Assembly: GCA_964520045.1 (NCBI GenBank)
Contig: CAZFMJ010000004.1
Location: 5,131 to 62,931, forward strand
Length of the DNA: 57,801 bases
Direction of reading: 5' to 3'
From: an uncultured Elusimicrobiales bacterium
Lineage (GTDB): Bacteria; Elusimicrobiota; Elusimicrobia; Elusimicrobiales; CAZFMJ01
The notes under the pieces are model-generated. The model had not been told where the DNA came from, did no database searches, and saw only the letters and a program-made list of their open reading frames with translations. Within the stretch, counting starts at the first letter, position 1, and every line of letters begins with the position of its first letter. Made by a program: the position numbers and the translations under genes. Of the stretch, positions 9,984 through 57,801 are shown in pieces.

Positions 9984-10150
9984 AGATGTCCCCCTTAATT
10001 AGTTTTACCTCTTTACACAAAAAGTATTTTAACACATTCACAATTACTTTGGCGGTTTATATTCATTTATCGCGTATCCCGATTAAGTTATAATATAGTC
10101 ATAAATGCAATAGGTAAAATTATACGGGCTTTTAGGGCGGGAGGATTACT

Positions 10151-11137: not shown

Positions 11138-11195
11138 ACCCAGGCCGGACAGTTCCATAATTTTTCGTATACCTTACTGCAATATTGCTCAAACC

Positions 11196-25157: not shown

Positions 25158-25167
25158 TTTTAAAAAA

Positions 25168-25306
25168 GGTAAATGGGAGAATATAGAAGGTAGATGGAAA
25201 GGAAAAGACAAAAAACAAATCCTTTTTTTATTTAGTTTAAAACTTGCTTCTTTTAAGGATTGCTTTGGCAGCCCAGCCGTCTAGCTGCCTCGCTGTCCAG
25301 CTGTCT
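25168..25306. repeat. Two unpaired repeat arms (GGTAGAT heptamers; GTCCAGCT octamers)
   Basis: ggtaaat gggagaa tatagaa ggtagat ggaaagg (25168-25202); gcccagcc gtctagct gcctcgct gtccagct gtct (25271-25306), abutting the kbl stop. Confidence 0.75.
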
Positions 25307-33117: not shown

Positions 33118-33128
33118 AAAACAAAGAA

Positions 33129-33230
33129 GGTAGATGGTAAACGGTAGACGGTAAACGAAAGAATGAAGAAAATAAATGGAAGAAAATTTATATCTGTTTT
33201 TGTTTTACCATCTACCGTCTACCGTCTACC
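33129..33230. repeat. Inverted heptamer tandem-repeat pair, GGTAGAC family
   Basis: ggtagat ggtaaac ggtagac ggtaaac ... ttttacc atctacc gtctacc gtctacc. Confidence 0.9.
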
Positions 33231-33231
33231 C

Positions 33232-33269
33232 CAATATGACCCCGCCACACAAGTGGTGGGGTCATATTG
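33232..33269. terminator. 17-bp stem-loop directly after the PorV-like gene (terminator or mRNA-stabilising hairpin)
   Basis: CAATATGACCCCGCCAC-acaa-GTGGTGGGGTCATATTG with one non-Watson-Crick pair; no clear U-tract on the minus strand. Confidence 0.55.
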
Positions 33270-33274: not shown

Positions 33275-34228
33275 TTAGAATCTTACGGAAAGGGTATACC
33301 TGAAAGTATTTCCTAGATCTCCGAATGGAACCCATGCGAAATCAACATTAAACTTTGAATACTGCAGTCCGGCTCCGGACGAGATGCCTTTGAGCCCGTC
33401 TATATTCCTGTAATGATTTGTATAGCCGAACCGGAGCGCCCCGCTGAGCTTTTGCATTATTTTACGGCTGTATTCCGCGCCCGCGGCGAAAAACGTATTG
33501 GTATCCCTGTATTTAATAAAATCTATATCGGCCCTGAGCCCCGGCAAAAATGTATATCCCAGTCCCAAAACGCCGCAGACAGGAAGGGGATCCGAACCCT
33601 GATTATATTTAAGTTTGCTTCCGAAATTCCTTATTCCCACCGCGACATCAAGCGGTCTGTCATACAAAGGCCGCATCTGTATGCCGACGTCAAAAGCCGC
33701 TGCTCCCGCGGACACGGCGTCTATTTTTTCCCGCACATATTTAACAGTGCCTCCGATGCCGAAATATTTGGCCATTCTGTAGGAATAACTCAGCGCATAC
33801 GCCATATTTGAAGCGTCGAAAAGACCGGCGGCGAGATCGGTGTCTTCCGTGCGCCTTTCCATTTCCGTTACGGACATATTATAAACGGAAATACCCACCG
33901 CCTGGCGGGAATATCCGTCCTGTTTGTCAAAGGGATAAGCGAATGACATGAACTCATAATTCGTATCCTGAAAATAGGTCACATGCTGGCCAGCGAATTC
34001 AGGAGAAGTCATTTTTGTCAGTCCGGCCGGATTATAATAACCGGAATACACGTCGTCGGCCAGCGCCGAATAAGCGTCCGCCATTCCTCCGGCGCGGGAA
34101 CCCGCGCCGAATTTTAAAAATTGAGCGCCGCTTGTGCCCGCGTAATCGGCAAGGGCGTATGCCGCTCCCTGACATAAACCGGCGGCAAAAACAATAAAAA
34201 CAGCTGTCCTATAAAATTTTGTTTTCAT
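33275..34228 (-). CDS. PorV/PorQ-family (UPF0164, FadL-like) outer membrane beta-barrel
   Basis: Signal peptide; GTSGAQFLKFGAGSRAGGMADAYSALADD...YYNPAGL; alternating beta-strand pattern; C-terminal LSVRF. Confidence 0.85.
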   Translation of the reverse strand: MKTKFYRTAVFIVFAAGLCQGAAYALADYAGTSGAQFLKFGAGSRAGGMADAYSALADDVYSGYYNPAGLTKMTSPEFAGQHVTYFQDTNYEFMSFAYPFDKQDGYSRQAVGISVYNMSVTEMERRTEDTDLAAGLFDASNMAYALSYSYRMAKYFGIGGTVKYVREKIDAVSAGAAAFDVGIQMRPLYDRPLDVAVGIRNFGSKLKYNQGSDPLPVCGVLGLGYTFLPGLRADIDFIKYRDTNTFFAAGAEYSRKIMQKLSGALRFGYTNHYRNIDGLKGISSGAGLQYSKFNVDFAWVPFGDLGNTFRYTLSVRF

Positions 34229-34241
34229 AATTCCCCTTTAC

Positions 34242-34320
34242 GGTAGATAGTAAACGGTAGAAGGCAGACGGAAAAACAAACTGTTTTTTTCTCCGTCTAC
34301 CGTCTCCCATCTACCGTCTT
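34242..34320. repeat. Inverted heptamer tandem-repeat pair, GGTAGAC family
   Basis: ggtagat agtaaac ggtagaa ggcagac ggaaaaa ... ccgtcta ccgtctc ccatcta ccgtctt. Confidence 0.9.
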
Positions 34321-34323
34321 AAT

Positions 34324-37300
34324 TTACTGATACCTGCTGTCCTTTACTACCGCCATCTTGAAGAAATCCTTCTTACCATCGAGCTTAATCTCGCCTATGT
34401 ATACGCCGGAGGCCACAGGCTGGCCCGTCTTATTGACTCCGTTCCAAGCATACACCGTCGTCTGGCCCGCGGTATAGGGGAGCGTATCGTCCCACACAAG
34501 TTCGCCGGCCATGTTGTATATTTTGAGAAGCAGATTGCCGCTCATTCCGGCGGGCACAAAAATCCGTATGCAGGTGCCTCTTGTGACGCACTGCGCGCCG
34601 GCCGTATATCCGCCCATTCCGGCAAGCATATTCGTGCTCTTGGTTTTAAGGCTCAGATTAAACGGATTCGGGAAGTTATAAGCCTTAAATTCCGTTCCGG
34701 TATACGCCACAGTGGAACCAACAACAGGAGCAACTGTAACCAGAGTGGAATAGAACACGGTGTATACGGACATATGGCCGATATTGACGGAGATGGTGTT
34801 ATTGAACGGATCTACCGCCTTGCCGTCCTCTTGTATCTGATACGAACAGGAGGAACAGGGCAGATAATAGACATTGAGCATGTCCGGATTATTGGTGGCG
34901 GTAGATTTAGTCAGGTCATATGAAAGCGTTATCCTTGCCTTTTTCTGCAAAGTATGGCTTATTCCAGCAGGCAGGAAGAAATCATAGAAAGAGCTGAACG
35001 GAGTATAGTTAGTCGCGCTTCCTGCGCCTCCGGCCTGAGCTTTATATCCGCCTCCATCCTGATTTTTAACCGCAAGGATAGCCCCATAAAGTTCCACCGG
35101 CAATCCTTTGGAAGCGGCTATCTTAGCGATATTTTCACCGTCATCGTATTTTGACACGGACACCGTCGTAAACGCGTTTCCGCTGTCTTCGAACCTGCGT
35201 ATGACCACGGTCACGGTGGTATTCACCACCGCATAAGTGCTGCCTTCCAAAGCAAAACTGCCGGCTTCAAATTCGGCGGAAGTATGCTCTGTCTCGGTGG
35301 AAGCGGATTCAAGCTCCACCATGCCTCCGTTCATGTTCGTAATCTTCTCCTGCGCCCCGGCGCTTATGCCGGTATAGAAGTCGAACGTTTTGTATATCAT
35401 GAAATTCGCCCGTTCAAGGCTGTTGGGATCTATTTCATTGATATACGCGGAGGAGATTATTATCTGGAATCTGTTCTCTCCCGCCCCCGGCTTATATGCG
35501 GCCGTCATCTGCTTGCGGTCAAAAGATATTGTTTTTGACCCTAATACGAAACTGCCGGTTCCCGAACTCAATATTATGGCATCGAGATCATTATCCGAAG
35601 GCAGTCTGTTCCTAAGCGCTTTTGAGCAGGTGAATTTAAGCTGGAACTGCGTGGCGCCGGCCAAATCCAAAGTCCTCTTGGTTGTGGCGGCGCAATCGCC
35701 TATCGCCGGCCTGAAAGTAAGAATCTGGCCGGGAACAGAGGCTGTCGATTCAGCCTGAGTGAACCTTACCATCCCCTCCACGGGAAACACTATATCGCCT
35801 CCAAACGGCGGCACAAGCGCCATGACATAAGTTATATCGGGCTTAAATCCGGAGATGGCATACTGATCCACCGTGTTGGATTCGGAATTAACCAGCACTG
35901 TGCCCACGACAAATTCCGTAAATCCGTCATTCGCGGCGACTATCATGCCTATCTCGTTCGCACTGGGCGAAGTCCACCCACCGGGAGCGGTTGTATCCGG
36001 CTTGCGTATCGCGCCTGAAATAGTGGCTCCTTTTTCAAGCACAACAGAGCCGATATCCTTGCTTCCCGCCTGCGTTATGGCGAAAGTGGCGTTAGTAACC
36101 GCATAGTTGAGGCTGACCGCCCTTATGGTATACGTGCCTACGGAAAGACCCAGCACCTCAAATCTTCCGTCAGGGTCGGTTATGGCCTCTATATCGCCCA
36201 TAGGATTATTCTTGGGCAGAGTGCCGTAGGGCTGTATAAACACTGCGGCCACCGGGAATCCCCTCATATCCCCGAACGGATAGGAAAGAGGCCCGCTGTC
36301 TACGGTGACAATCGTTCCCTGCAGATCTCCGCGCATCTGTTCAAGGCTGAAATTGACCTCCGTGGTTTTGGTCAAATCGATAGCACGTTTAACGGTTTCC
36401 TTGTAAACTTCCGTGGAACCGGAAACATTTGCAGTCTGCTCTCTGGGAGCCGCCGTAATATCAAAATACCTGGAAATATAGGTGGATACCCACACGCTGT
36501 ATCTGCCGTCCCTATTGGTCATGGTCTGTATGGTCATGGGATTGACCACATAAGAAGGCTTCGCCAGCATCTTTACATTAGCCAGAGGCGCTCCGCCGTC
36601 GGAATTTACAACAAGCCCGGTAAGCGCCTGACCCTGATTCAGGTCAAAAACCCCGAGGTCCCGTGTTTCTCCGGCGACAGGTTTAATTCCTGTTTTTATA
36701 ACCGGCGAATAGTTCTGGGCGCCCTGCCTCATGTAGCCTATGTCCCAGCTGGTCTGTTCGCATCTGACGTCATAATAGATGTCGGGCAGAACGGGACCTA
36801 TTTTAACGGTTCCGTCATATTCCACCGGCCTGCCTATCCCGTTTACGGTAACGCTGGTTCCGGACAGATAATACCCGCCCTGCACCCATGGATTCGATAT
36901 CGCGTAGCAGGAGAAGTTCGGAGCGAGCAGAGACGCGTTGTTCTGCGCGATTATAGACACTGTGTTCATGTCGCGAAGCTTAAACTTCAGGAACGCGCCC
37001 TGCTTTAATATCACATTCTGATTGCTCAGATTCTGCTGGAGACCTCCGGTTACGGTAACATCCGGGAACTTTATAGGCGAAGCCACGTATTTGACCGTTC
37101 CGCTGGAATCTTTCACATCCCTTACCTGCAGGGTATAGTACCCGCCCCTTTGCAGGCCGGCCATCGAGTAGGCCGCGGAATTGGAAAGAGTATTGGTGAA
37201 CACGTTGCCCAGCATGGCGGCAGTGGAACGCACTACCTGATTACTGTTATTGAGCAGGGTAAGCTGAAGCGACCTTGCGTCCTGAATATCATTGGCTATG

Positions 37301-40300
37301 GAGATATTCCCGCTGACATCAACCCCGTCAAAAAGCGTGAAGTTGACGGCGCCGGTGGAAACGGCCGTTCCGTTTACCATCACGTTACCGGAAAGATAAT
37401 CCGACCTTCTGACGGTTACGATTTTTTCCTGCTTGGGCACGGATACCGCGCATGTCGCGCACAGCTGGAGAGGAAGCGTGCGCAGGGTATATACGCCTTC
37501 CTGCAGGCCTGATACGGTATAAGAGCCTGCCGCGGTGATATATCCTACCCTGGTGCGCATCGGATCATACGTGTCCGACAAAACTATGCCTGTCTGGGTC
37601 ATTTCCCTGCGCACGGCTTCAATCGGTATAACCGTTCCCACGGCATAAGCGGGGTATCCGGCTGCCAGAGTAAAGCTTGAATTCTGAACTATTTTCTGGC
37701 TGGTATTAAAATCCGGATTGCTTATCTGCGTAGCGACGACAGCTCCGGAAACTGCATACGTCTCGTCCCTCAGGTCTACAACGACATTGGTGACCGCGCC
37801 GTTTACCACCTTAAGCTGATAAGTTTTGGAACGGCCTGTCGCCTTGAACGTGAAGATGATCTCCATCGTCTGAGTCTCGAGCCCTTCCACTCTAAAAACA
37901 GCCCGCGAACCATTTATCACAAGTCCGGGAAGTCCTTCGCCTCCGGACGTGCCGGTTATGTCGGCCATATAGATTCCGCTATCCGTCGTCGCGTACGGGT
38001 TGTCTGAATTCAAAATGCGGCCGGTCATGGAAACCTGCTGGAAATCAGCCGCGGTCGTAGGCGCGCCGTTTACTGTTTCCGGCAGATAGATGGTTCCGTT
38101 TATCACGCCCGAAGCCAGCTCAAAAGAGAAATCTCCGGCATTATTTGTGACAGGCACGGGCACAATTTTCGGGAATCCGCCCGGCGTTGAAAATTCGCCG
38201 GGTCCGTTTGATCTTCTGTCCAGATTCGCGAACAATTGATAACTGGAATTGCTCTCCAGACCCGTTATTGTATAAGCGGAACTGGCTATTTGTTCGCTCC
38301 CCGAAACCGTTCCGGTAGACAGATACACTTCAGCCCAGCCGTTACTGAAAGTCGCCGGCGACCAGACATTTATCCATACCTTAAAGGCGCAGCCGTTATG
38401 CTGGCCGTCTATGCACTCAGGCTTGGTATCAAGCAGTTCGAAATTAGACATGGCGGACGCGCTTCCTTTTATCGACACTGTGCCGGTTATCTGCCCGCCC
38501 GTATTAAATTCCGGCAGATCAACTACGCGGTCGGTATATGCGACCACCACGGGAAAGGTGCTCGATACTCCCGAGAAACCCGGGACCTGTCCTCTTATAA
38601 CGTAGGTTCCAGGATCGACTCCGAACAGGTTATACGTGCCTGAGCTTAAATTCGGCTCAAGCCATATTCCGCCCCATGCGCCCTGATTGGAAGACGACAT
38701 GTCCTGCGGCATGGCATTGACCGATATCCACGTGCCGTTGGCATTAAGAGCGCCTGCCGGCAGTTTTACAAGCCCTGAGACATTGGCTTTTCTTGAGAAA
38801 GGAGACAGGTTTACCACAGCTCCGATACTGCCTACGTATGCCGTAGCGCTTACATTTCCGTAGCCGTATAACTGTGCATCCACGGTATATGTTCCGGCTT
38901 CCACGTCAAATCTTATGCGGCTGCGGTACACAATTTGACCCGTTGACGCGTCCCAACTTCCTCCATCGTCGAAATTAGTGGTTCCGCCTATAAGCCGAAG
39001 TCCTCCGTTATATACGCGGTCCCAATTGTCGGTGTGAACATTTATCCAGCCCCATTGGTCGGCCGTATTAGAATTCACTCCCGAAAACGACGGTATGAGT
39101 ATAAGGGCGGGGGCTCCCCTCATTGAAGCATTGCGCGTGGCGCCCGCCGCGTTGACAATAACATTCGTCGAAATACTCGCGTATTCCGGCTTTGTGAACT
39201 GGAAGTTATAAGTTCCGGCGGCAAGCCCCGGTATGGAATAATTTCCGTTGGAATCCGTTACAGTCTGACCCCAGCCGGACGGACCGCTCGCATTTATATT
39301 TACTCCGGCAAGCGGCCTTGAAGGAACAACTCCCGCGTCAAGAACCCGTCCGGAAACCTGCGGAACAGTTACATCTATGCGCAGATCCGTGTTTGAAAGG
39401 CTCCCTACCTCTATTTTCACATAATAGACGCCTGAAGGAACTACCGAACCATAATTAATCCACGGACTGTAGTGTCCGTCCCAGACTACCTGGCCGAGAT
39501 ACGGCTGTCCCCAGCCCCATGATTCCCATATAGCCGTCGTAGTTACGCCCTCGCGGAAAGTTCTTGAAGAAATAATCACATGCCAGCCTATACTCGGATC
39601 GCTGAGCGCAAAGTTTATATACGCGCGGGCATTATCCACAGGATTGATCGTTATCTGCGTTAAGGCGGAATTATAAGTTCCGGTTGAGATATTAGCTCCC
39701 GTAATAGCCTGGCCGGCCATAACCTGCACGCCCATATAGGACGTATTCGCATATCCTAGATTATAGGACAAAGCGATATTATGGAATCCCGCGGTAAGAG
39801 GCCTGACATGGAATGTGGCCGAAGACACTCCGGCGGGAATAGTTATCCCCGTCTGTCCAGCGGCAAGAGCGGCCAAACCAACGTTGCGGGAGAACTGCAT
39901 ATTGGGATCAGCGGCAAACGCTCCTGTCGCGTAGTCATAACTCTGTCCGCTTACGGTGGCTACCGTCACTCCGGCAAAAGGCGCCGGGTTCCAGCACATG
40001 TCCCGTCCCTCCACCACCATAGTTGAGATTGAGTTTGCTGGCAGAGTGATGTTATAGGAATTTTCGCTTCCTGCCATGCGCATTGAAATATTTGCCGCTG
40101 TTCCGGCCACAAGCGCGGATGACGGCTCGCCGTTTACTAAAGGCGCCGGCGTTGAACCGGATTTGGACGTGCCCACATGGAATACCGCAGTTCCGGTTTC
40201 GCACGGAGAATTCAACCCCTTAAGCATTATATAAACGGACGCGCCTTCAGACAGAGACTGGCCCGCCGCAAGACGAATTTCGGCGCCTGAACCGAATGAA

Positions 40301-52300: not shown

Positions 52301-54615
52301 CCATTTTCGTCTACGAAGGCAAATATGTACAGGTTTGCCGGAGCCGGCACGTTATACACCGTAACGGGAGCGCCGGACGAAACAGCTGACATATAGATAG
52401 GAGAACCGTCTATGTTATCCATGAATGCCACATAAAAATTCCCCGTATGGGAACCGGAGTAATTTATGGTCATGTTTATCGACCCTGTCGCTGAATATAT
52501 GGTGAAATCATGGCCGGAGCTGGTCTGGCCCACCCCGACTTCCATACCCCCGCTTTCTATCTGGCCGTTCATGTCCGGATTTCCAAGAACATATCCCGTT
52601 ATCTTTGAACTGCGGTCAGCCTGCACCGGAAGCGAATACGCATACTGCGTTGTTCCCCCCGCGAGCGGGATAACGACTGAGCTGACAAGAACCTCATCGT
52701 TTCCGGACAGCCATTGCCATGCTTTAACCACAAGACTGTCTCCGGGCCTGTCGCCGGCAAAGGTTATTGTTCCCGCCAGATTTCCGTACTGGATAAGCTG
52801 GCCGGTATTAAAATTGAAAGTATACGGCGTGTCCATACACATGCCTTCCGAGCAGAAACTCTGAACTTTGACCATATACTGCGTATAGGGATCCAGATTA
52901 CCGCCGGTCAGGGTTATTCTGTACCTGTATTGGCCGGGAACGGGCATATCCACGAACTGAAAACTCTGAAACAGCGAAGTATAATTAAAATTGCTGCCGT
53001 CCATGGTTTTTCCAAACTGCAGATAAGAGCCTATGGCTGAATTGTCATAGGGATATACAAAACCCGTAAAAATGACATCTATGCTTGAGAGGCTGGGGGA
53101 AACGTTCGTGGCGTCGTACTGGGGCAGGGTGTCCCCAACCGACGGATTCATGACAGCGGGCGGAGCGGAAGCGAATGCCCCTGTAGACACATAATCGGCG
53201 TACTTTGCTGTGTTATAGCGCCATGAAACTATAACTCCGTTCTGGGAATCAGTAACAGCAGGCTGACCCGACCCATAATAAGGCGGCATGGAACCGGAAA
53301 CATCCACAATAGTCCCCAATGCGCCGGTTGCGGCGGAAACTCTTGAGGCAACTATATGCCCGTTGTTATGCGCATAGCCGGCTATATAATAATATCCGTC
53401 CTTATACAACAGTCCGTCCCCGCTATTGCGCTGTCCGAAAGGAACATCCCACACCGGCGAACCTCCCCCGCTTGACACTCTTGCGATATACTCCGCCGAA
53501 GTGCTCCAATTATCCGGAGCCGCTATTGTGGAATAAACAACCGCAAGACCGCCCGGATCAACCGCTACTTCTTCCGGGGAAGCCCATTTGCCCTCAGCTC
53601 CGGCCGCTATAAGCTGGCCTCCGCCGTCCCCTATTGTAAACGCGCCTACGGCATTGCCGTCAGCGTCCACATGCGTCGCGTAGACTTCGGTATAATTGCC
53701 CGCCGCCCTCGTGTCATCCCATACGATATAAAAACCGTCATTTCCGTCTTCCAGAACATCCAATTCGTCTAGCGCCTGGTCGCCCGGCCCGGTAACAAGC
53801 GGTTTGCTCCATACCAAAGAGCCCGAGGCGGACCATTTTGCCCCGTATATGTCCATACTGCCCAAATCGTTTGAGGTCCACACAAAATACCCGCTTCCCG
53901 CAGTTGCGCCTCTTATCAATCCGGCATTGCTTAAGTTGGCCGCAATCAAAACAGCTCCGGTGGAATTATGCACGCAGTCCGCGTCGGCCGTGGGCCATTG
54001 GCAGTTTCCGCTGGAATCCAGCCTCTGAACCACACCGCCGACTCCCTCAATCCCCATGCCGACGGCCGCCCCGCCGTCAAGCGTTTCTATAAGTTCCCCG
54101 CCGCCGGCATAGCCGGGAGACACCTGCTTCGGCCCCCACACAGACATCCCGTCCGGAGCGATCCTGTGCAGGAATATCCTTGAAGGGAACTCGTCTCCCA
54201 CCGACGTCCCTTCATATTCCTGCCAGAATATAATAATGCCGCCCGAGCCGTCGCCTACGGGACTGGCATGACTGCCCTGGGCATTGGTCGAAACGCTTAC
54301 TCTCATCGGCACGCCTGAATTCCACATCAGCGCGCCCGTGAGACTCACATGCTGAGCGTACATCTGGGGATAACCGGGATGCTCCGGCGCAGTGGCGGAC
54401 CATACCTGATAAAAACCGCCGTTTCCATCGGCAAGATAATAGGTTTCAGAGTCATTGTCATTAAAATCATACCCGGATGAAACCGTAATAGGCCATGAAG
54501 CATGCGCCTGCCATGCGGTTCCCAATGCAATGCATAAAATTAAAGCCGCGCCTTTGGCGGCGGCTTTCAAATTTGAATAAACCTTTTCAGTCTTGTTTAA
54601 CGTAATTTTTTTCAT
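34324..54615 (-). CDS. Giant (6,763 aa) secreted multi-domain surface protein / putative adhesin with FlgD-Ig/T9SS-like C-terminal domain
   Basis: Uninterrupted 20.3-kb ORF; Sec signal ending AHA|SW; beta-propeller-like repeats, Ig/FN3-like, PPC-like, LecA-like and carboxypeptidase-regulatory-like modules; about 20 DxNxN-type loops; C-terminal YNFPNPFN...KIYNMAGELV...WNGVN..GQPVASGVY. Confidence 0.9.
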   Translation of the reverse strand: MKKITLNKTEKVYSNLKAAAKGAALILCIALGTAWQAHASWPITVSSGYDFNDNDSETYYLADGNGGFYQVWSATAPEHPGYPQMYAQHVSLTGALMWNSGVPMRVSVSTNAQGSHASPVGDGSGGIIIFWQEYEGTSVGDEFPSRIFLHRIAPDGMSVWGPKQVSPGYAGGGELIETLDGGAAVGMGIEGVGGVVQRLDSSGNCQWPTADADCVHNSTGAVLIAANLSNAGLIRGATAGSGYFVWTSNDLGSMDIYGAKWSASGSLVWSKPLVTGPGDQALDELDVLEDGNDGFYIVWDDTRAAGNYTEVYATHVDADGNAVGAFTIGDGGGQLIAAGAEGKWASPEEVAVDPGGLAVVYSTIAAPDNWSTSAEYIARVSSGGGSPVWDVPFGQRNSGDGLLYKDGYYYIAGYAHNNGHIVASRVSAATGALGTIVDVSGSMPPYYGSGQPAVTDSQNGVIVSWRYNTAKYADYVSTGAFASAPPAVMNPSVGDTLPQYDATNVSPSLSSIDVIFTGFVYPYDNSAIGSYLQFGKTMDGSNFNYTSLFQSFQFVDMPVPGQYRYRITLTGGNLDPYTQYMVKVQSFCSEGMCMDTPYTFNFNTGQLIQYGNLAGTITFAGDRPGDSLVVKAWQWLSGNDEVLVSSVVIPLAGGTTQYAYSLPVQADRSSKITGYVLGNPDMNGQIESGGMEVGVGQTSSGHDFTIYSATGSINMTINYSGSHTGNFYVAFMDNIDGSPIYMSAVSSGAPVTVYNVPAPANLYIFAFVDENGDMEPRGFEPLGYKGTWGPMAYFNTNAVAVAAASDTVVDAGSIDLHEMGSVAGTLNLGLNSGNFRVALVHGDPLAGSLVVEDDEHLYVNTVFNCSTCVYTALYDFSGIVPGTDYAVFAYFDRNDNRSPDAGETFGLSSLGLSVVENATTTVNMPVTQRYYGGTSDLTVNLNYLGSVNAGNYSIVLSTDLGDPYTGAGYVYSPSASGTFKGLSSNTTYFIFSSRDTDSSGSYQKDAVTEPMGWMSYYMGTAGSFSTPLNVVDPAVMAVTLSNKPAGDRVIAEFVNIPGYSGYIESTTDSYFETGVMPSPYFGYDVTINAFVDNNPENGQYDAGESSVTYSVWASSSASNPVVLTFSGGGGGGTPVFSGDFNQTSGAVYDGGDMDMAQGLAYNNGYVYGIAISSGIGGIVYKYDTLGNKQAHAVITELYPTGIAVNNNGVYVTGQIADTGFGTYRYNDSLVLISSAVLSGDASARGITVDNSGNVYVIGSESEAGPHMGPPSDYKFVKYSYDLASPVLGTFDAGGNDEGYGVAVDNTDSSVYLAGYNFIGGTTNYVTAKLNSSLAFVSSGAYTNAYFSEHSWMSIAFKDSTRELFLTGAVPSAQNGRDIGIVRYNSGLAQTAFYQWNGADDAAFIKIAQDGNIYVQGNTYDGMTNDDVVVGKFDADLGYIASAIKSFDQSYEPGGIALDSIGNVYAAGTYLGGAENEYDVSTGKFPYTEFTGGGGGGTGNLQALIDFQGSGSSGDYVVLVSSVGYGRMVSNPSLQPDTNFQFFSLPAPATYYVFAFRDTDGNFQMQRNTGEPFGIARIFVPEGGLGSGTITIVDPAPVAVTMNNKPAGTAYLEFLLTPDEMLREMAPASPWNTELPPSTYFNSMVTAFAFVDNNMNNVYDEGEPNGTSSDNWITGGVPNYITVNFGGGGPVEAGTMTVTAVNAALPYGKLYNDAPMLKFTLAVNSGEAYFNGIELNIVGSVVMANNEISDVAIAKEINGDGKYNYYDDQMVGNIWNMGVSTFTVTTYSNEVITTTPSVYYVLARPNNFSALGKTVSVSIQSKNAFTLSKGYIADGSYPMTSAQMEVSNSVFAGNYENYGNFWVGYNQTANIESTGTWSAGGSYGETGPAGSGSCSAGCKIESAPRGALVARVGYSGAWQLIGVSSTISSGENSGDLFLAMNDDDYYDGNYGELFFKAWIQAKAARWTGNGVTDYATDANNWEGNMPPGYGDDVVFDGVGTNADKQCDWDIFWNTSKSLTLGPSFTGTVRIVQSPSFNQLTVDNAIDIQGGTLDTNGQSLQAKGGITVGGASNGTLFLNAVNSNSPLYLGSAGLTVTSSGTFRSGGASSAFISGVDYGQYPIYILGGTVTVNSAGGTTFDNVLGITLNTGNAVMNNVSFMGLQPGVAALILNPPSGANLTFNNWNFDGSVSTNVNTAGAAYSFNLVMTNASGPKMGSVNERGMDPNNYVTWSPEGGLSGGEIEGQVSYSGSTGGSLYVYLSTSNNPTDPYVLMYSSAQPSFPHTYHFVDLTAPATYYVYAYADGNNNPQGSYGKPGEVYGATGIYLAQGSLVQTGKNITLDNQGTFAGTILKNGDQQGWIIVEAWHATGGLLANKIEFPGYYPYMPYSIPVAPGSDYYVRVFTDVDGDKTWDSFEGSGQFGPNITATAGVVEDNVNLEISSGTAVPGGTMFVSYQPFSGYMSKNTYESEEPILNLGVWTDGLDAYFKYLSLLPAGTSDPSSFKVDVYRDYNGNGMRDYDDEWTGNGYFTASSTAPVVIDLDHLSAPPLVTAATRYFLITAGVINPGQVQNDDSIGVIVSSSGMGLTQGQVSEFAPITSGIRTVKPSVNASAAVCYSEWCGAYMDVNIYGGQTLSISATGQWTVQGTQVDARGGNTYGGIVPGAPLGALIARIGNNPWIYVGTGTTLQYTGFGGGLKLGMNKCDNCSYNDTFGKLFISYAVTGSTTATVMGTITYDGLTSGSITIEAKQWNESGLQVAASTSVALVGGTTVYPYVFSGIPGQRSSMIFAHVSSDEAQMGGYPGDLWLEPGAVRAGIDFRVNPGAGTINSTLSYSGAQTQGVVTAVLFKSFESQPVYTSTCSAAGEPYSAVGTFSLPNVPGPDQYYMAVFIDFNNNGEPDGPEPLGYFGNPGPLSQIGANAVQVAVASAATVNVPSITLYDMGQINGTLALGQLHGEVGVEVWHGAPGGLSSVRENWKEYYVEMCGWTGCANQLEYSLGTLSPGSDYAVFAYVDDNKNRQFDAGEKFGVSQLNLSVSANAVTFANMSIQETLVPPPPPSLTGVAEDVSQIRWTWQDVLSETGYKLLDSTGGFITSLPANTTYYLEDIGTGNTAGAIRGIKSANSYGDSNAVFVPQPVYTLAVIPSVEIVSRTESSIGINLSISGNSAGTRYGIQRSTSSSGGFVTVLAGTAPVAGYLDEGLSPSAAYYYRARTFNAANIASGFSDPMSASTVTLMGAGYSIAGAIIYSGQQSGPIIVRAFTGADFTGLVKSISLQGGNEYYLGDLTNGVNYYVRAFVDVTGDGIKTTNEDSGVAANPINVTGAMAGKNISLMRDTIAPKMPTLLTASAGFMTVNLSWTASVSGDALGYEIERSTSNTFAGNVMRISSSAPAGYATGTAYTDNNPVTGVYSYYRMRTLDWGMNVSSWTSPASVRATSGGSITGIVHAYDTASQGSYHVRVSTSPDANISSIADIIVSTSPNTYTVTGLSDGVYYMRGYRDVNGDFTQSRRNEPSGTHGGIARPFDLYVTQGNTITGKDLIVCNRVPLAVGVSTVTAISEAACRALDRGPDYYTRIFTFEVGYGAGKVTPGSQLNITANAVNGGFSDSYLYLIGPSGDVVTQDDDSNGNGNARINYTVQEEGIYLLEPTSFSPASSGDVEVAMNITGGYNGMVSGTVGYLGSPYANQGQVYVQVFNNLDPYAWPMRFVTASSTGTFEIEGLQDGNFYLKAYWDINNNSMRDAFEPYGYHGSSAPAAFNVSGGLTTDSLNIIMTDPPMGAVSGTLSYTGSKTGNIRIEAGKVRSDCPDCGTRDLDIKKFTYLYSVDRSTTAAYTLTLLEPATQYYIRAYMDLNSNNEKDVLEPYVSSGTINIIAGSTATGVNLLLRDPGTGTTGNSNISGYVHYTPSAGSVSTGTVWIGWALDDEFDNVPYWTTSSSRSVSGGTASWYYSKTNILGNATYYMAAFLDLNGNGLPDDMTLGEPLGFYGTGGEFAPLYIPVSSNAAANVTVQEPAKGSLSGTIYYSNSNTNYGAVRVEAWVENCQGNGCGNRTQINWAQGVASYPFTLNFMGASTSYHLYAFMDTNNSGNHDQGEPNAWSDTSYTVAEGLPTAGVQLNMFDPGQFIGVENIGRISGLVSYSGQQAGSIIVRMFDNAGRTGAPVRTFNTCPAGSSCSYEFLNLSGGMYYLDAYMDTSANGIYDGSFEAYGIIGNSAGINISPAFNQIFDQNGNINDPAYVLVSTGSRAISGAISVLSQNTAGKVRIQLFRYNADKEVMRYPIRSIAENYTQQPVFYSFTDVDDGNYLVQAFLDSNDNYWPDSPQEAWGQSKTVDLGTLVPASGVNFKACYRASIQSGVQVVGSLAASDCVSPERPSSYLDYYTFEGRNGDVVTIEMTGTGFSDKYLYLYRPSTEETGTPHYYNLAASAEPDYVTGNAAISAFTLRETGQYVIGATSLGGAITGEYRLSLNTSGSATGAIAGDARYNGTQGGMIRVGLFNTTDLKNSEPLRGTDMTVSGPFNFTGLPTGSTYYIAGFMDVNLDGNINDGEDFGVYGPSLDNPTPIVLRAGQNISGLQFAINTTTVTPQGPVPAVISGFISYTGAFAGTLRVEAWNDSKFQGYPVAVRSVETGYWPTAYDMQLPGNSQYYFKAFLDMNGNAMPDANEPKGAYQPNNQGPEPRYVSEGEEASGVDFALYDPGISGGDVKGEGWASILPAQIPAGSMFDSTITVRVGPNGLSQNGVIAFSLPFNFYGGLQTGCPQCSNYVSFSTGGAVNPPIAALNSFGSGAEIRLAAGQSLSEGASVYIMLKGLNSPCETGTAVFHVGTSKSGSTPAPLVNGEPSSALVAGTAANISMRMAGSENSYNITLPANSISTMVVEGRDMCWNPAPFAGVTVATVSGQSYDYATGAFAADPNMQFSRNVGLAALAAGQTGITIPAGVSSATFHVRPLTAGFHNIALSYNLGYANTSYMGVQVMAGQAITGANISTGTYNSALTQITINPVDNARAYINFALSDPSIGWHVIISSRTFREGVTTTAIWESWGWGQPYLGQVVWDGHYSPWINYGSVVPSGVYYVKIEVGSLSNTDLRIDVTVPQVSGRVLDAGVVPSRPLAGVNINASGPSGWGQTVTDSNGNYSIPGLAAGTYNFQFTKPEYASISTNVIVNAAGATRNASMRGAPALILIPSFSGVNSNTADQWGWINVHTDNWDRVYNGGLRLIGGTTNFDDGGSWDASTGQIVYRSRIRFDVEAGTYTVDAQLYGYGNVSATAYVGSIGAVVNLSPFSRKANVSGLVKLPAGALNANGTWISVNAMPQDMSSSNQGAWGGIWLEPNLSSGTYNLFGVDPGTYVIRGQVPGFSGVSSTFPVVVAYTDRVVDLPEFNTGGQITGTVSIKGSASAMSNFELLDTKPECIDGQHNGCAFKVWINVWSPATFSNGWAEVYLSTGTVSGSEQIASSAYTITGLESNSSYQLFANLDRRSNGPGEFSTPGGFPKIVPVPVTNNAGDFSFELASGVINGTIYLPETVNGAPTTAADFQQVSMTGRILNSDNPYATTDSGIYMADITGTSGGEGLPGLVINGSRAVFRVEGLETQTMEIIFTFKATGRSKTYQLKVVNGAVTNVVVDLRDETYAVSGAVVATQISNPDFNTSQKIVQNSSFTLAAGYPAYAVGTVIPIEAVRREMTQTGIVLSDTYDPMRTRVGYITAAGSYTVSGLQEGVYTLRTLPLQLCATCAVSVPKQEKIVTVRRSDYLSGNVMVNGTAVSTGAVNFTLFDGVDVSGNISIANDIQDARSLQLTLLNNSNQVVRSTAAMLGNVFTNTLSNSAAYSMAGLQRGGYYTLQVRDVKDSSGTVKYVASPIKFPDVTVTGGLQQNLSNQNVILKQGAFLKFKLRDMNTVSIIAQNNASLLAPNFSCYAISNPWVQGGYYLSGTSVTVNGIGRPVEYDGTVKIGPVLPDIYYDVRCEQTSWDIGYMRQGAQNYSPVIKTGIKPVAGETRDLGVFDLNQGQALTGLVVNSDGGAPLANVKMLAKPSYVVNPMTIQTMTNRDGRYSVWVSTYISRYFDITAAPREQTANVSGSTEVYKETVKRAIDLTKTTEVNFSLEQMRGDLQGTIVTVDSGPLSYPFGDMRGFPVAAVFIQPYGTLPKNNPMGDIEAITDPDGRFEVLGLSVGTYTIRAVSLNYAVTNATFAITQAGSKDIGSVVLEKGATISGAIRKPDTTAPGGWTSPSANEIGMIVAANDGFTEFVVGTVLVNSESNTVDQYAISGFKPDITYVMALVPPFGGDIVFPVEGMVRFTQAESTASVPGQILTFRPAIGDCAATTKRTLDLAGATQFQLKFTCSKALRNRLPSDNDLDAIILSSGTGSFVLGSKTISFDRKQMTAAYKPGAGENRFQIIISSAYINEIDPNSLERANFMIYKTFDFYTGISAGAQEKITNMNGGMVELESASTETEHTSAEFEAGSFALEGSTYAVVNTTVTVVIRRFEDSGNAFTTVSVSKYDDGENIAKIAASKGLPVELYGAILAVKNQDGGGYKAQAGGAGSATNYTPFSSFYDFFLPAGISHTLQKKARITLSYDLTKSTATNNPDMLNVYYLPCSSCSYQIQEDGKAVDPFNNTISVNIGHMSVYTVFYSTLVTVAPVVGSTVAYTGTEFKAYNFPNPFNLSLKTKSTNMLAGMGGYTAGAQCVTRGTCIRIFVPAGMSGNLLLKIYNMAGELVWDDTLPYTAGQTTVYAWNGVNKTGQPVASGVYIGEIKLDGKKDFFKMAVVKDSRYQ

Positions 54616-54649
54616 ATATATTCACCTTTTTTTAACGAAGATGATCAAC

Positions 54650-54705
54650 TGCTCACCATCACTTTCTGCTCATCACTTAAAACTTACCGCCAACTTACGA
54701 CTTCT
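54650..54705. repeat. Heptamer repeat arm (CTTAC family) right after the beta-barrel stop
   Basis: cacttaa aacttac cgc caacttac gacttct; AACTTACCGC is the exact reverse complement of GCGGTAAGTT at 55882-55891. Confidence 0.65.
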
Positions 54706-54706
54706 T

Positions 54707-55945
54707 TTAAAATTCGTAAGAAAATCCGAGCAAATACGTTGTCACGTCAAAATTATATCTGTAAAGCTTTTCATACGACATATTCGATACCTGCTTCCCG
54801 TACTGAAAGGAAACCAGCCCCTTAAAACCCGGAGCAAGCGGATATGACGCCGAAGCCGAAAGAAGCCACTCATTCATATAAATGCTGTCTGTTCCGTAAA
54901 GGCCCGCCGAATCCTGAATCGGCCTTTTGGAATATTTCGTCCTTCCCACACCGGCGCCCGCCCTGATCTCTGTAAATTTTTTATCGTCATTTGCTAAAGG
55001 GATCTGCACCGCCATATCGACTCCGAACCTGTACTTGTTATAATTGTAGTAATCCGCCAGATAGGTCGTTCTCTGCGCGTCATAGCTGTTCTGGTTGGAG
55101 CGGTTTGCCAACAGAGTAAAACCGACCCCAGGAATAAGCTTCACGCCTTTGGCTGTTTTGTTCGGCACTTTCCAACTTAAATCAAACATTCCCATGGTAT
55201 CGTTTCTTGTGCCTGTTTCAAACTGGCCGGCGGTGTTAATCACATGCTGTTCATCATACGCCCTTGCGGTTAAATTGCCGGATACCGCAAGAACCGACCC
55301 CCCGGCATTTCCGGTTACGGAAAAAGTGACCCCATGGTTTACCGAATTAAGCACCTCAGAACCTGCCATTTCTCTGGCAAGACTGCCCGCCGACTGGCCC
55401 GCTATCTGGGATTCCAAAGAGGTGTAATTAAGAAAATTGATCAAATAAAAATCATATCCCAAGCGCACTGAAAACGGATCATTATAAAGGTATTCGCATT
55501 CAAGCGAAAAAGCGGGTTTATGATAGTCAAAAAGCCCTTTGCCCCATTTTTCATCTTTTGTTTCCTTTAAAAGATCCCATTTAAACTCCGCTTCCGGCTT
55601 TATCCTTAATTTCGGAGAAATCGAATATATTCCCCGCACGGCCACCTTATGGTCCATCCTTTCCTGGAAAAGCGTACCGCCTCCCACCAAATCAGTAACC
55701 TGTTTTGTGCCCTGATATCTTCCGCTATATAAAGGAATAAGGGTTAACTCTCTGGACATTTTGACGGAAGCCGAAGCAAGGGCGCTTGCATTCCCGGAAA
55801 GCGCTCCCTCCTGCCCCGAAAAGAAATACTGCCCGCCCAAAAACGAGGCGTTGAAATAAGGAGTGACTTCGTAAGCCGTAAGCGGTAAGTTGTAAGCGGT
55901 AAGTAAAAAAACAACCAAAGAAAATAAGCGTGTGTAAAATCTCAT
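54707..55945 (-). CDS. Putative outer membrane beta-barrel protein
   Basis: AGGAGG RBS, signal peptide, Tyr/Phe/Gly-rich alternating strands, C-terminal LGFSYEF (BAM-type aromatic end). Confidence 0.75.
   Translation of the reverse strand: MRFYTRLFSLVVFLLTAYNLPLTAYEVTPYFNASFLGGQYFFSGQEGALSGNASALASASVKMSRELTLIPLYSGRYQGTKQVTDLVGGGTLFQERMDHKVAVRGIYSISPKLRIKPEAEFKWDLLKETKDEKWGKGLFDYHKPAFSLECEYLYNDPFSVRLGYDFYLINFLNYTSLESQIAGQSAGSLAREMAGSEVLNSVNHGVTFSVTGNAGGSVLAVSGNLTARAYDEQHVINTAGQFETGTRNDTMGMFDLSWKVPNKTAKGVKLIPGVGFTLLANRSNQNSYDAQRTTYLADYYNYNKYRFGVDMAVQIPLANDDKKFTEIRAGAGVGRTKYSKRPIQDSAGLYGTDSIYMNEWLLSASASYPLAPGFKGLVSFQYGKQVSNMSYEKLYRYNFDVTTYLLGFSYEF
55871..55905. repeat. Heptamer tandem repeat (GTAAGCG x5) inside a signal-peptide coding region
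   Basis: gtaagcc gtaagcg gtaagtt gtaagcg gtaagta, encoding ...LLTAYNLPLTAY... Confidence 0.85.
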
Positions 55946-55988
55946 TATATACCCCTCCTGAGCTATATATGACGACCCTGGTTAACCG

Positions 55989-57575
55989 TTACCTTATAAT
56001 TCCTGATTGAATGAGTGTTTTGGGCTCCACCACAAGGTCAATTTTGCGTCCTTCAAACAGATTGCTGGTAATGACCTGCTCATAATTCCATTTAAGGAGC
56101 GTTTCCTTATAATCAGCCGTTCCCCGCGCCACTCCCTCAAAATCGAAAATAGATGCGATTTTGCCTTCATCTGATACTATATAACTGTCATACTGCTCCC
56201 AATAAGTCCCGACAGCGCCGTATGTCAGCCTTATTTTATCATGCAGAAGCAGTCCATCAGGTAAAATATCGCTATTGGTTGCAGGAAGCGGGTTTGCGGC
56301 GGAAAGCTGGCCATTGTCGCCTATATATTTATAGAGCGCATTATTCGCATAGCTTTGTATTCCGGTTCCTGCCGCGCCGTTATACGCTGTAATTCCAACG
56401 GCGGGTTCCCATGAATTAAATGTAACCTGCGAACCCGAACCGCCTTTGTATTTTATCGCATAGTTGTCAAACAGCGTCCTGTAATACGCCCCGGTCACTG
56501 CATCATAGTTATTGGTCTGCGAATTGAAATAAAACGCGACATCATCCGTATTATCCCCATTTGCATTTACATTGACCTGATGCCCGCCCAAAGCGTTTTC
56601 CTGTACAGTATCGATCAGATTAGACCTTCCGGTTTCATAGGCGGTCAGGTTATAGGCGCAGGCGGAACCGGCACATCCGCCCATCTGCCTGAGAGCCACG
56701 CTCAAATCGGAAGGAAGAGCCGTATTAAAGGTTCCCAGATAGTAAAAATAGTCAAACCGGCTCTCCCTTTCATTTAATACCACCAGCTTGAATTGATCCA
56801 GCTGGTTTTTGGGCCTCATTATATACTGCTCAAGCCGCACTCTTTTGCCGAAGGCGTCTATCATGCTTTTGCCCAATTGATATTCCGCAAGCTTCATTTC
56901 CTCCGCCGCGGCCGCCTGCACTTCCTCTTTTGTCATATTAAGGGAAATTTCGCTTTTTACCGCCTGCTTAGTGTCTTCGCTCTGCTGTTTCTGGTATTCC
57001 TGCCCCGACACCGCGGAACCCAGCCCGCGCTCATCCACCTTTATATGCTGGCCTTCGTTAAGCAGGGTCTCGTTGCCCATCGTGTCCTGAACGGCAAGGG
57101 CTCCGCTAAAAAGGTCTATGTTGGTATTATTGCCGTCGACATCTACGGTGAATTCCGTTCCGCGCACGGAGCAGACCGCCGTGGGAGTGCGCACTCTGAA
57201 ATTTCTCTGGGCCACTTTTTTGACCCACGCCTTCATCCAGCCGAAATTAAGCTTCATGCCGGAATCGTTTTTATCCGAGCCGTCTTTCTCAAGCACATAA
57301 AAAGACGACGACCCAAGTTCCACCCTTGAGCCGTCACTAAAATTCACCTGAGTGCGTCCGCGCCAATTGGTTCTTACCGAATCCCCGGGCTGAATTACGG
57401 CGGAATCATCCGCTCTGCTCCAGTCCGGCATGCTTGCGCGTTTTATTTCAACTTTTCCGGAAATTCCGGTAAGCCATGCGGCGTTTAACGCCCCGCCTGA
57501 AAGAAAAAATACGCAAAAAAGAAAAAGGAAACACAATGAAAAACGAAAGGAATAGCCTTTAGGATAACTGGTCAT
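55989..57575 (-). CDS. FecR-domain protein with a long unrecognised C-terminal region
   Basis: GGGAGG RBS; N-terminal signal/TM; GDSVRT...FSDGSRVEL...VRTPTAVCSVRGTEF FecR motif. Confidence 0.8.
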   Translation of the reverse strand: MTSYPKGYSFRFSLCFLFLFCVFFLSGGALNAAWLTGISGKVEIKRASMPDWSRADDSAVIQPGDSVRTNWRGRTQVNFSDGSRVELGSSSFYVLEKDGSDKNDSGMKLNFGWMKAWVKKVAQRNFRVRTPTAVCSVRGTEFTVDVDGNNTNIDLFSGALAVQDTMGNETLLNEGQHIKVDERGLGSAVSGQEYQKQQSEDTKQAVKSEISLNMTKEEVQAAAAEEMKLAEYQLGKSMIDAFGKRVRLEQYIMRPKNQLDQFKLVVLNERESRFDYFYYLGTFNTALPSDLSVALRQMGGCAGSACAYNLTAYETGRSNLIDTVQENALGGHQVNVNANGDNTDDVAFYFNSQTNNYDAVTGAYYRTLFDNYAIKYKGGSGSQVTFNSWEPAVGITAYNGAAGTGIQSYANNALYKYIGDNGQLSAANPLPATNSDILPDGLLLHDKIRLTYGAVGTYWEQYDSYIVSDEGKIASIFDFEGVARGTADYKETLLKWNYEQVITSNLFEGRKIDLVVEPKTLIQSGIIR

Positions 57576-57801
57576 TCGCCCCTCCCTTTATCCATCAGAT
57601 TTTCAGTACCATCAATTTATGCAAAAAAGGTCAAAACTTGTCAAGTCTTTTTTAGGCTTCGTCTAACCGACGTATTCCGCTGTTTTACCGACGGAAAAAT
57701 CCCGCAATATCCTGGCGAAACAATATGAGCGCTTGTTCTATTATTTCACCGCGTCCGCTATAAGGTTATCAGCCAGATTCCTATCGCCACGAAAGCCGTG
57801 C

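Follow-up and report, generated by a model that had tools for sequence, protein, structure and literature searches.

A four-gene operon in an Elusimicrobiota genome joins a giant surface protein to a PorV-like barrel and may form a type IX-like export-and-anchor module

The present study concerns a four-gene operon in a 57,801-nucleotide stretch of DNA from an uncultured Elusimicrobiales bacterium. The whole stretch is called the window here (G000:C4:5131-62931), and the genome comprises 2.96 Mb in 144 contigs and is rated 99.45% complete. In the open reading frame (ORF) listing, the four genes lie on the minus strand in the order FecR-domain protein, barrel, giant, and PorV-like barrel, with intergenic gaps of 43, 91, and 95 nucleotides (nt). 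Read by eye, each of the four translations begins with basic residues, followed by a hydrophobic segment and an A-x-A-like site. An earlier reading of the window (the sequence-only reading) had proposed co-oriented genes with gaps below 100 nt and signal peptides on all four products; the coordinates proved exact and the N-termini agree. It had also seen no SprA or PorKLMN genes in the window, which is confirmed; a SprA-like gene sits elsewhere in the genome. The features are given below, with lengths in amino acids (aa); T9SS stands for type IX secretion system, CTD for C-terminal domain, and Ig for immunoglobulin.

55989-57575, minus strand: P0001, FecR-domain protein, 528 aa (ORF listing, Pfam)
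54707-55945, minus strand: P0002, 16-strand barrel, 412 aa (ORF listing, structure model)
34324-54615, minus strand: P0004, giant, predicted secreted surface protein, 6,763 aa (ORF listing, Pfam)
40516-52818, minus strand: variable, presumably distal part of the giant, about residues 600-4700 (motif count, windowed self-BLAST, Pfam DUF2141)
34327-41238, minus strand: conserved, presumably proximal part of the giant, about residues 4460-6763 (BLASTP of the four module giants of G092, G086, and G090)
34327-34656, minus strand: CTD, the last 110 aa of the giant, Ig-like, a putative sorting or anchoring signal resembling T9SS CTDs (Pfam/NCBIfam, profile, co-fold)
33275-34228, minus strand: P0003, PorV/PorQ-family (FadL-like) outer-membrane barrel, 317 aa (NF033709, profile, co-fold)

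The gene after the giant had been credited with a PorV/UPF0164 signature, and the curated models bear this out. P0003 scores 154 bits against the NCBIfam PorV/PorQ family NF033709 (cut-off 90; residues 32-317 of 317), 32.6 against Pfam PorV PF19572 (cut-off 27), and 21.7 against UPF0164 (cut-off 21.4). Furthermore, a profile of 46 P0003 orthologues matches the solved Flavobacterium johnsoniae PorV (6h3i_F, from the SprA-PorV complex) with an E value of 4.8e-20. By these sequence models, P0003 is a member of the PorV/PorQ family. Against the equivalog pair NF033710/NF033711, the protein stays under both cut-offs, with 80 of 220 bits for PorQ and 67.1 of 250 bits for PorV. The family call itself is not new, as NCBI already labels Elusimicrobia barrels 'PorV/PorQ family protein'.

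The C-terminal end of the giant reads ...FPNPFNLS...LLLKIYNMAGELVWDD...YAWNGVNKTGQPVASGVYIGEIK..., and the PNPF...VASGVY-type domain noted earlier is thus present. Over the last 130 aa, Pfam FlgD_ig is the sole family above its cut-off (27.6 bits vs 27), and CHU_C stays below (20.4 bits, cut-off 27). The best NCBIfam stretches for the CTD are the C-terminal ends of PorZ and PorU. Similarly, a CTD profile searched against the PDB matched PorZ (5m11, residues 713-758) with an E value of 6e-4 and PorU (6za2) with an E value of 0.048. PorZ and PorU are proteins that keep their CTDs, held by PorQ and PorV.

P0003 residues 26-317 (46-row alignment) were co-folded with the giant's last 110 aa (24-row alignment). 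An interface between the CTD and the PorV-like protein, which the sequence-only reading had singled out for checking, is predicted with scores of 0.91, 0.89, and 0.91, against 0.00 for the best of three controls. In the calibration of the mark applied, 58 of 80 solved complexes passed, as did 2 of 110 mismatched pairs; these rates are only rough when own alignments are used. The runs share at least 87% of their contacts, and partner pLDDT (predicted local distance difference test) is at least 71. On the barrel side, the contacts fall on the conserved N-terminal GTSGAQFLKFGAG segment and on loops; on the CTD side, they involve IYNMAGELV, VASGVYIGE, and the terminal strands. P0003 is, therefore, predicted to bind the CTD of the giant.

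This pairing extends well beyond the operon. Hidden Markov models (HMMs) built from this genome itself count 23 PorV-family ORFs and 26 ORFs with such a CTD at the C-terminus; the curated PorV/PorQ model finds 17 places above its cut-off. The CTD match ends within 30 aa of the C-terminus in all 26 ORFs, and within 15 aa for 24 of the 32 domain matches. Directly behind 17 of the 26 CTD ORFs, on the same strand and at -120 to +244 nt, follows a PorV-family ORF, and 17 of the 23 PorV-family ORFs are so placed. Across 16 pairs (one more, cut by a contig end, was left out), CTD identity correlates with barrel identity (Mantel r 0.66, a value that none of 5,000 permutations attained). A private PorV partner is not special to the giant's locus; it is the rule in this genome. 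The earlier proposal of a dedicated cargo-plus-shuttle unit is supported, and none of the outcomes that the sequence-only reading had named as refuting was seen: synteny is conserved, the interface is predicted, and the host is Elusimicrobiota. It needs qualifying in that the dedication is genome-wide (17/26) and that, with no PorU-type sortase found, the barrel is better described as an anchor than as a shuttle. With at most 29 candidates scored per genome, PorV-family matches occurred in all 61 sampled genomes of the phylum, with 1 to 6 in most small genomes (below about 1.9 Mb) and at least roughly 10 to 33 in most others.

Some PorV-family ORFs of this genome are much longer than P0003. 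ORFs of 470 to 690 aa occur at C19:15775-17805, C19:22136-24199, C53:10624-12603, C13:11875-13728 (all G000), and elsewhere. They carry the PorV domain in the first ~300 residues, followed by a long unexplained C-terminal extension (the ORF starts are uncurated).

The giant is rich in G, S, A, T, and V, and its Pfam matches are DUF2141 and CarboxypepD_reg, with fn3, PPC, and SBBP under the cut-off. Between residues ~600 and ~4700 lie about 20 divergent (25-45% identical) DUF2141-like β-sandwich repeats of ~110-120 aa each, whose loop, [AVG][FY]xDxN/DxN/D, gave 22 regex matches. Stretches resembling fn3 and PPC, below Pfam cut-offs, are interspersed in this region. Carboxypeptidase-regulatory-like and other Ig-like domains come after the repeats. 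In BLASTP with the four giants of complete modules in relatives, only the C-terminal ~2,000-2,300 residues are held in common with P0004. Sequence comparison thus indicates that the end near the CTD is conserved and that the N-terminal repeats are free to vary. Giant genes have been reported as common in Elusimicrobia, in the available part of PMC12057145, which cites the preprint 10.1101/2023.11.21.568195.

Two further giant ORFs were seen in this genome, neither with a P0002-type barrel nearby. C5:33408-66746 (minus strand) is cut by the contig end and codes for 11,112 aa or more; behind it lie genes for a CTD protein of 2,565 aa and a PorV paralogue. C2:28421-51397 (plus strand) encodes 7,658 aa; 1.9 kb further on, a CTD protein of 524 aa is encoded and then a PorV paralogue.

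The SprA-like gene of this genome is split across two contig ends (C74 and C89), whose fragments give partial matches of 72, 45, and 18 bits to TIGR04189 (SprA). Across the phylum, 114 of 121 genomes contain one frame of ~1,750-1,900 aa that this model matches in two or three colinear segments, against 0 of 14 control genomes. A whole relative of 1,793 aa (G105) scores 105 bits, where the cut-off is 200, and its only Pfam match is a marginal one to Autotransporter. For the other T9SS parts, the searches returned little. GldL and GldM (TIGR03513, TIGR03517), GldM_1st (PF12081), and GldN found no match in this genome; the TIGR models for GldL and GldM were silent in the controls too, and GldN was silent in every control genome and so had no positive control. 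As these models rang in no control genome, the absence of PorL, PorM, and PorN is not shown. The best GldK match reached 68 bits (cut-off 350) on the generic sulfatase-modifying-factor part only, and such a match also occurs in three unrelated control genomes (Bacillus, Caulobacter, and Methanosarcina). All 12 matches to PorU NF033707 fall within model positions 991-1095, the CTD end, and none on the peptidase part. PorP/SprF TIGR03519 gave a single match in the genome (21.9 bits, cut-off 90.55), on a PorV-family ORF of C53; neither barrel of the operon matches it. Within the reach of these models, then, the canonical T9SS complement was not found in this genome.

How does the locus compare with known systems? 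Like type-A cargo of the Bacteroidota T9SS, the giant has a putative Sec signal peptide and an Ig-like CTD, a PorV-family barrel is predicted to bind that CTD, and the genome encodes a very large candidate outer-membrane protein remotely like SprA. Unlike in that system, the host belongs to Elusimicrobiota, each cargo tends to have its own PorV paralogue rather than one for all, and the CTD scores below TIGR04183 and PF18962. Besides, the SprA-like protein has ~1,800 aa against 2,319 model positions and lies below the cut-off, and PorL, PorM, PorN, and PorU were not found. As far as its available text goes, PMC12618676 states that one PorV is enough for all type-A cargo in Bacteroidota. Closer in gene logic are the type-B CTD cargoes with cognate PorP/SprF-like barrels, namely SprB-SprF and PG1035-PorP-PorE (available portions of PMC9143113 and PMC12618676). 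As there described, directly behind a cargo gene lies that of a small outer-membrane barrel private to this cargo, and the barrel serves in its delivery and/or surface hold as a required part; SprB is also a giant adhesin, and the periplasmic partner PorE offers a possible analogy for P0001 with P0002. The differences are that the barrel here is of the PorV/PorQ family, that TIGR03519 reaches only 21.9 bits genome-wide, and that CHU_C reaches 20.4 of 27.

A third comparison is the attachment complex of Porphyromonas gingivalis, in which PorQ-PorZ and PorV-PorU are described (PMC12365241, in the part available). The giant's CTD fits best to the CTD ends of PorZ and PorU, and the PorQ equivalog score of P0003 (80 bits) exceeds that for PorV (67 bits). 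In that complex, PorV/PorQ-family barrels hold a protein by an uncleaved CTD. In contrast, the equivalog scores of P0003 are far under the cut-offs of 220 and 250, and a structural giant takes the place of the sortase or lipopolysaccharide (LPS)-delivery protein as cargo.

The remaining two genes of the operon form an always-adjacent pair that is specific to the giant's family; a second pair, more distantly related and paralogous to the first, is encoded elsewhere in the genome. The P0002 family occurs in 44 of 121 sampled phylum genomes and in 36 of 53 genera, and was not found in two families of small genomes (1.0-1.9 Mb; 0/37 and 0/34). A FecR-type ORF ends -200 to +400 nt from the P0002-type barrel in 55 of 68 testable loci (80 in all). 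Seven of the 13 misses (L045, L047, L050, L051, L104, L102, and L118) show a FecR gene directly upstream in the gene-order listing; they missed the distance rule because their barrel ORFs are longer at the N-terminus. On the other side, an ORF of at least 1,000 aa begins within 600 nt downstream of the barrel in 30 of 51 testable loci, and in many loci lacking one, one or two ~500-aa genes intervene. All four complete modules, from three stretches (two in G092, one each in G086 and G090), run barrel, CTD giant, PorV-like barrel. The FecR ORF was called upstream in three of the four; in G090, an antisense 512-aa ORF was picked at that place. Their giants measure 7,844 and 3,553 aa (G092), 2,498 aa (G086, behind an extra 789-aa gene), and 3,600 aa (G090). 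Several loci even show CTD giant, PorV, FecR, barrel, and giant in a row, that is, tandem modules. The four-gene order, whose synteny the sequence-only reading had wanted traced in relatives, recurs across Elusimicrobiota.

The second FecR-barrel pair provides a hint of where such pairs belong. With P0002 as query, phmmer finds only the window's own copy in this genome; the P0002 profile detects a distant paralogue class (75-120 bits) and adds one member here, on C25. It lies in a trio (L130, G000:C25:15001-34000; ORFs 7509-11344, minus strand) comprising a FecR-like protein of 603 aa, a 260-aa protein with no family match, and a barrel of 407 aa, directly upstream of SMC. In G105 (L128, C7) and G071 (L129, C81), the order is FecR-like gene, gene for a ~250-275-aa protein, barrel, long PorV/TraF_2-like barrel, two divergent genes, and SprA-like gene. 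The long PorV-like barrel has 544-552 aa, and the G105 copy also matches TraF_2. G107 (L127, C36) has a similar order with no long PorV gene. This arrangement hints that the FecR-barrel pair belongs with the SprA-like translocon.

Taken together, we favor the view, with a probability of roughly 55%, that the operon exports the giant by a T9SS-like route and that the PorV-like barrel then holds on to the uncleaved CTD, thereby anchoring the giant at the surface. Judging from the N-termini, all four products would reach the periplasm through Sec. The last ~100 residues of the giant would fold as an Ig-like CTD and dock on the co-encoded PorV/PorQ-family barrel. P0003 would meet its cargo at a SprA-like outer-membrane translocon that is encoded elsewhere and is near-universal in the phylum. 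The CTD is proposed to stay uncut because no PorU-type sortase was found, and the PorV-like barrel would then serve as a permanent membrane anchor, much as PorQ holds PorZ and, in Bacteroidota, PorP/SprF-like barrels hold cargo of type B. Three points underlie the anchor reading: the PorU search, which found no catalytic part, the likeness of the CTD to those of PorZ and PorU, and the one-barrel-per-cargo logic known for type-B cargo. The conserved C-terminal ~2,300 residues would form a cell-proximal stalk, and the variable N-terminal repeats a distal, interacting end. P0001 and P0002, as a guess, may make up a second outer-membrane complex that assists the passage or the retention of so long a cargo.

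Several observations weigh against this view. The CTD falls under both T9SS CTD cut-offs (12.8 of 27 bits for Por_Secre_tail, PF18962, and 18.6 of 23 for TIGR04183), and 9 of the 26 CTD genes have no adjoining PorV gene. Since complexes of PorV with cargo CTDs have been solved (8gl6-8gln), the high co-fold scores may reflect memory of, or likeness to, these complexes; they are no proof of binding by this copy and are silent on permanence. The Mantel correlation is what whole-module duplication would be expected to yield and by itself indicates no specificity. The SprA-like protein exceeds the curated TIGR04189 cut-off in 0 of 121 genomes, Pfam SprA matches neither the genome's own fragments nor the whole relative, and searches with phmmer and a three-sequence profile found no match to solved SprA in the PDB. 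A motor may exist that is too divergent for the PorL, PorM, and PorN models. Of the ~22 genomes with the distant paralogue class, only three (G105, G107, and G071, from two families) have that barrel and the SprA-like gene within ~5 kb of each other. Physical contacts of P0001 or P0002, be it with the giant, with the translocon, or between the two, are a guess.

A wider proposal, which we advance tentatively and are more inclined to doubt than to believe, is that a minimal or ancestral-looking relative of the T9SS operates in free-living Elusimicrobiota. It would consist of a ~1,800-aa SprA-like translocon and a private PorV-like anchor per cargo, with no PorLM, PorKN, or sortase. The FecR protein and the 16-strand barrel would then be an undescribed outer-membrane machine with docking, gating, or energy coupling like that of PorK/N/W; it would come in giant-specific copies and in one more distant paralogous version, whose genes adjoin the SprA-like gene in three genomes.

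In the available parts of PMC5445135, PMC4980022, PMC11205867, and PMC12398890, the T9SS is described as confined to Bacteroidota or to the Fibrobacteres-Chlorobi-Bacteroidetes (FCB) superphylum. Here, PorV-family barrels, cargo with CTDs, and a protein remotely like SprA occur in a phylum outside FCB, with motor, ring, and sortase undetected. If true, the export-and-anchor interpretation would separate the T9SS parts for cargo recognition and holding from those that add energy and processing, and would give a handle on how the T9SS arose. It would also make one genome a source of at least 16 natural cognate CTD-barrel pairs from which to work out the recognition code. Furthermore, the module gives a first testable context to two unannotated families, that of the 412-aa barrel and that of the FecR protein's C-terminal domain, and suggests how the products of Elusimicrobia giant genes reach and stay on the cell surface. 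Our literature search, with supplements and most subscription papers outside its scope, found no description of T9SS-like parts, cargo-PorV pairing, or the four-gene module in the phylum; co-mentions of Elusimicrobia and T9SS terms were confined to reference lists or were unrelated. An earlier description may exist in supplements or subscription papers.

In the main rival reading, P0002 itself is the giant's route across the outer membrane, a dedicated translocon of the two-partner secretion (TPS) or Slam kind. In that case, the FecR protein would do the job of POTRA or tetratricopeptide repeat (TPR) domains, and the PorV-like barrel would only anchor the CTD. We consider this unlikely, though the specificity of the FecR-barrel pair for the giant's family speaks for it: the other 25 CTD genes have no P0002-type barrel, so the pair is not needed for CTD cargo generally, and the adjacency in 55 of 68 loci fits as well. 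In the model of P0002 (pLDDT 90.5), a signal peptide is followed by 16 long strands forming a barrel from residue 26 to 412. Its neighbors in VIA form a continuum of 16-strand barrels, Z 20.6 to ~14, with no stand-out. The TpsB barrels CdiB (6wil_A; Z 20.6, root-mean-square deviation (rmsd) 3.4, 288 aligned) and FhaC (4ql0_A; Z 18.7, rmsd 4.3, 278 aligned) are the best of them and favor the rival. However, this match is not discriminating because porins come within 1-2 Z units (OprP 19.5, chitoporin 18.7, Omp38 18.6), and Foldseek against the PDB returned generic barrels only (TM at most 0.47).

P0002 thus resembles TpsB in being a 16-strand barrel next to the gene of a giant secreted adhesin. 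It differs in having no POTRA domain, as the barrel begins at residue 26 and the model shows no periplasmic domain, and the N-terminal half of the giant has no Pfam match to a TPS or haemagglutination-activity domain. As for the Slam-like version, the Atlas returned Elusimicrobiota 'hypothetical protein' clusters for P0002, and a neighbor cluster (rank 9, score 0.97, Ignavibacteriota) carries SlipAM on 19% of its members. This is a lead only, which Pfam did not confirm: neither SlipAM nor any other Pfam family reached E 0.1 on P0002, and NCBIfam gave no match. Moreover, a 16-strand lumen with no lateral-gate partner would be narrow for a chain of folded β-sandwiches. The P0002 family, seen in Elusimicrobiota, has no Pfam or NCBIfam model. 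Kinship of P0002 with the PorV family was considered and rejected, as hhalign of family against family gave a probability of 5.8%.

One clade of P0002 homologues (P0021-P0035, P0049, and P0010; loci L045, L047, L050, L051, and L104) ranges from 376 to 715 aa, with most members at 686-715. These lengths imply an extra N-terminal part of ~300 residues. An fn3 domain occurs in one homologue, and the annotation of one homologue names a four-helix-bundle domain.

We regard as quite improbable a shuttle of the canonical style, in which the PorV-like barrel would ferry the CTD from the SprA-like translocon to an unrecognised sortase that removes the CTD and links the giant to a surface glycolipid, with motor and ring too divergent for the HMMs. 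The PorV-family membership of P0003, the presence of the SprA-like gene, and the want of a positive control in the motor and ring searches all agree with it. So does a hint of a link to LPS export: the divergent pair beside the SprA-like gene in G105 is LptG/LptF by Pfam, and genes of LptF/G size, identified by size only, stand at the same place in G071, G107, and the genome's own contig C74. Against this stand the 23 PorV paralogues, of which 17 are attached to a cargo gene and co-diverge with the CTDs, where one PorV serves all type-A cargo in Bacteroidota. The PorU model found no peptidase match in a genome rated 99.45% complete, and the giant's CTD is most like the retained CTDs of PorZ and PorU.

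A reading with no link to secretion would make the PorV-family barrels FadL-type uptake channels or porins, the CTD a terminal Ig domain, and the FecR protein and barrel a sensing pair; this seems very unlikely to us. Some P0003 orthologues are named 'long-subunit fatty acid transport protein' at source, P0003 has a weak Pfam Toluene_X match (15 bits), and FlgD_ig is the only family above cut-off on the CTD. The adjacency of 17 of 26 CTD genes to a PorV gene, the co-divergence of CTDs and barrels, the high-confidence predicted interface against zero-scoring controls, and the position of the CTD at the extreme C-terminus in 26 of 26 ORFs all argue the other way.

The sensing part of that reading turns on P0001, which matches Pfam FecR (PF04773) with 61.8 bits (cut-off 24). 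Its model (pLDDT 88.2) shows a signal-peptide-like N-terminus, a FecR β-sandwich at ~33-181, two helices at 191-227, and a β-rich C-terminal domain at 232-528. The sandwich has the fold of the PupR-type signaling domain (6ovm_R; Z 16.9, rmsd 2.2, 130 aligned), a point in favor of sensing. The C-terminal domain of ~300 aa is conserved and has no recognised fold: Foldseek found no structural match, the Atlas no usable one, and the best VIA match (Z 6.8, to parts of the TamA, Sam50, and PapC barrels) is too weak for naming a fold. Like the FecR/PupR anti-sigma regulators, P0001 has the FecR fold and a genetic partnership with an outer-membrane barrel. Unlike them, it has in both model and sequence no cytoplasmic anti-sigma domain and no membrane-spanning middle, it has the extra 300-aa C-terminal domain, and its partner is a plain 16-strand barrel rather than a TonB-dependent transducer. 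Only ~30 residues precede the FecR domain, with the signal-peptide-like helix at 10-25, and no sigma factor occurs among the 19 flanking genes scanned (10 downstream and 9 upstream). Since there is no room for the anti-sigma part and no sigma factor among these neighbors, P0001 and P0002 are, by their sequences, not a sigma/anti-sigma sensor.

Homologues place the host firmly. P0002 has 286 homologues at E ≤ 1e-3 and P0003 has 612 at E ≤ 1e-20; all taxon-bearing source names are Elusimicrobia, Elusimicrobiota, Elusimicrobiales, or Elusimicrobiaceae, and one reads '[bacterium]'. Among 80 genome loci with a P0002 relative, 78 have titles beginning Elusimicrobi-, and the other two are just 'bacterium'. 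The NCBI lineage sets Elusimicrobiota directly beneath Pseudomonadati with no FCB rank shown. By these names and lineages, the host phylum is Elusimicrobiota, outside FCB, as the sequence-only reading had supposed in placing the host outside Bacteroidota. The notion of an ordinary locus in a Bacteroidota or FCB organism with a complete canonical T9SS is refuted as far as the methods reach, given this taxonomy, the failure to find PorL, PorM, PorN, or a PorU catalytic part, and a GldK match that is generic only; nothing was found in its favor.

The boundaries of the operon are marked by two further features:

33232-33269, minus strand: hairpin of 17 bp, directly 3' of the P0003 stop codon (folding energy, arm pairing)
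57616-57644, minus strand: possible promoter (by-eye reading, weak)

The operon-closing 17-bp hairpin claimed earlier is real. Its arms (33232-33248 and 33253-33269) are 17 nt each and 94% complementary, with a 4-nt loop. The folding energy is -32.8 kcal/mol (z -6.1), and none of 200 shuffles is equally good. No T-run follows, and a terminator scan gave no call there; the hairpin likely ends the operon transcript. At the other end, AAAGGGAGGGG immediately precedes the ATG of the FecR gene (57575). About 40 nt upstream of this ATG, a perfect TTGACA (57644-57639) is separated by a 17-nt spacer from CATAAA (57621-57616). A consensus promoter scan of 57300-57801 returned 0 promoter-like sites, the by-eye candidate included.

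One flank of the operon carries DUF2064, receiver-domain, GlnA, GH57, PurH, and LigA genes; the other carries EamA, cupin, xanthine-dehydrogenase-family subunit, PmbA/TldD, and Mrr genes. No sigma factor, mobile-element gene, or further secretion gene adjoins the operon among the flanking genes scanned. The idea of a mobile element or island was dropped because the flanks hold housekeeping genes (GlnA, LigA, PurH, and GH57). An assembly artefact was dropped as well, as the giant ORF is uninterrupted and relatives have full-length homologous giants. The window stretch is contained in four groundwater-metagenome DNA runs of one study, one of which may be its source, and no RNA runs containing it are listed.

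Other observations concern the surroundings. Upstream of the operon on the same contig, amid the xanthine-dehydrogenase-family and PmbA/TldD genes, ORFs 6867-9000 (minus strand) of L138 (G000:C4:62700-74918) encode an Mrr-type restriction endonuclease and an AAA_14/DUF4143 ATPase. At window positions 23613-25211 (minus strand) lies a gene for a 532-aa protein that matches Pfam only in its C-terminal portion, with a GNA1162-like lipoprotein domain. The stretch from the hairpin to the next gene contains tandem heptamers (GGTAGAC/GGTAAAC/GGTAGAT) at 33125-33156 and 33204-33230, which form an inverted pair of arrays flanking an A+T-rich spacer. By regex, arrays of at least two such heptamers number 262 across the 2.96-Mb genome, often in nearby opposed pairs, and look like a dispersed intergenic repeat element.

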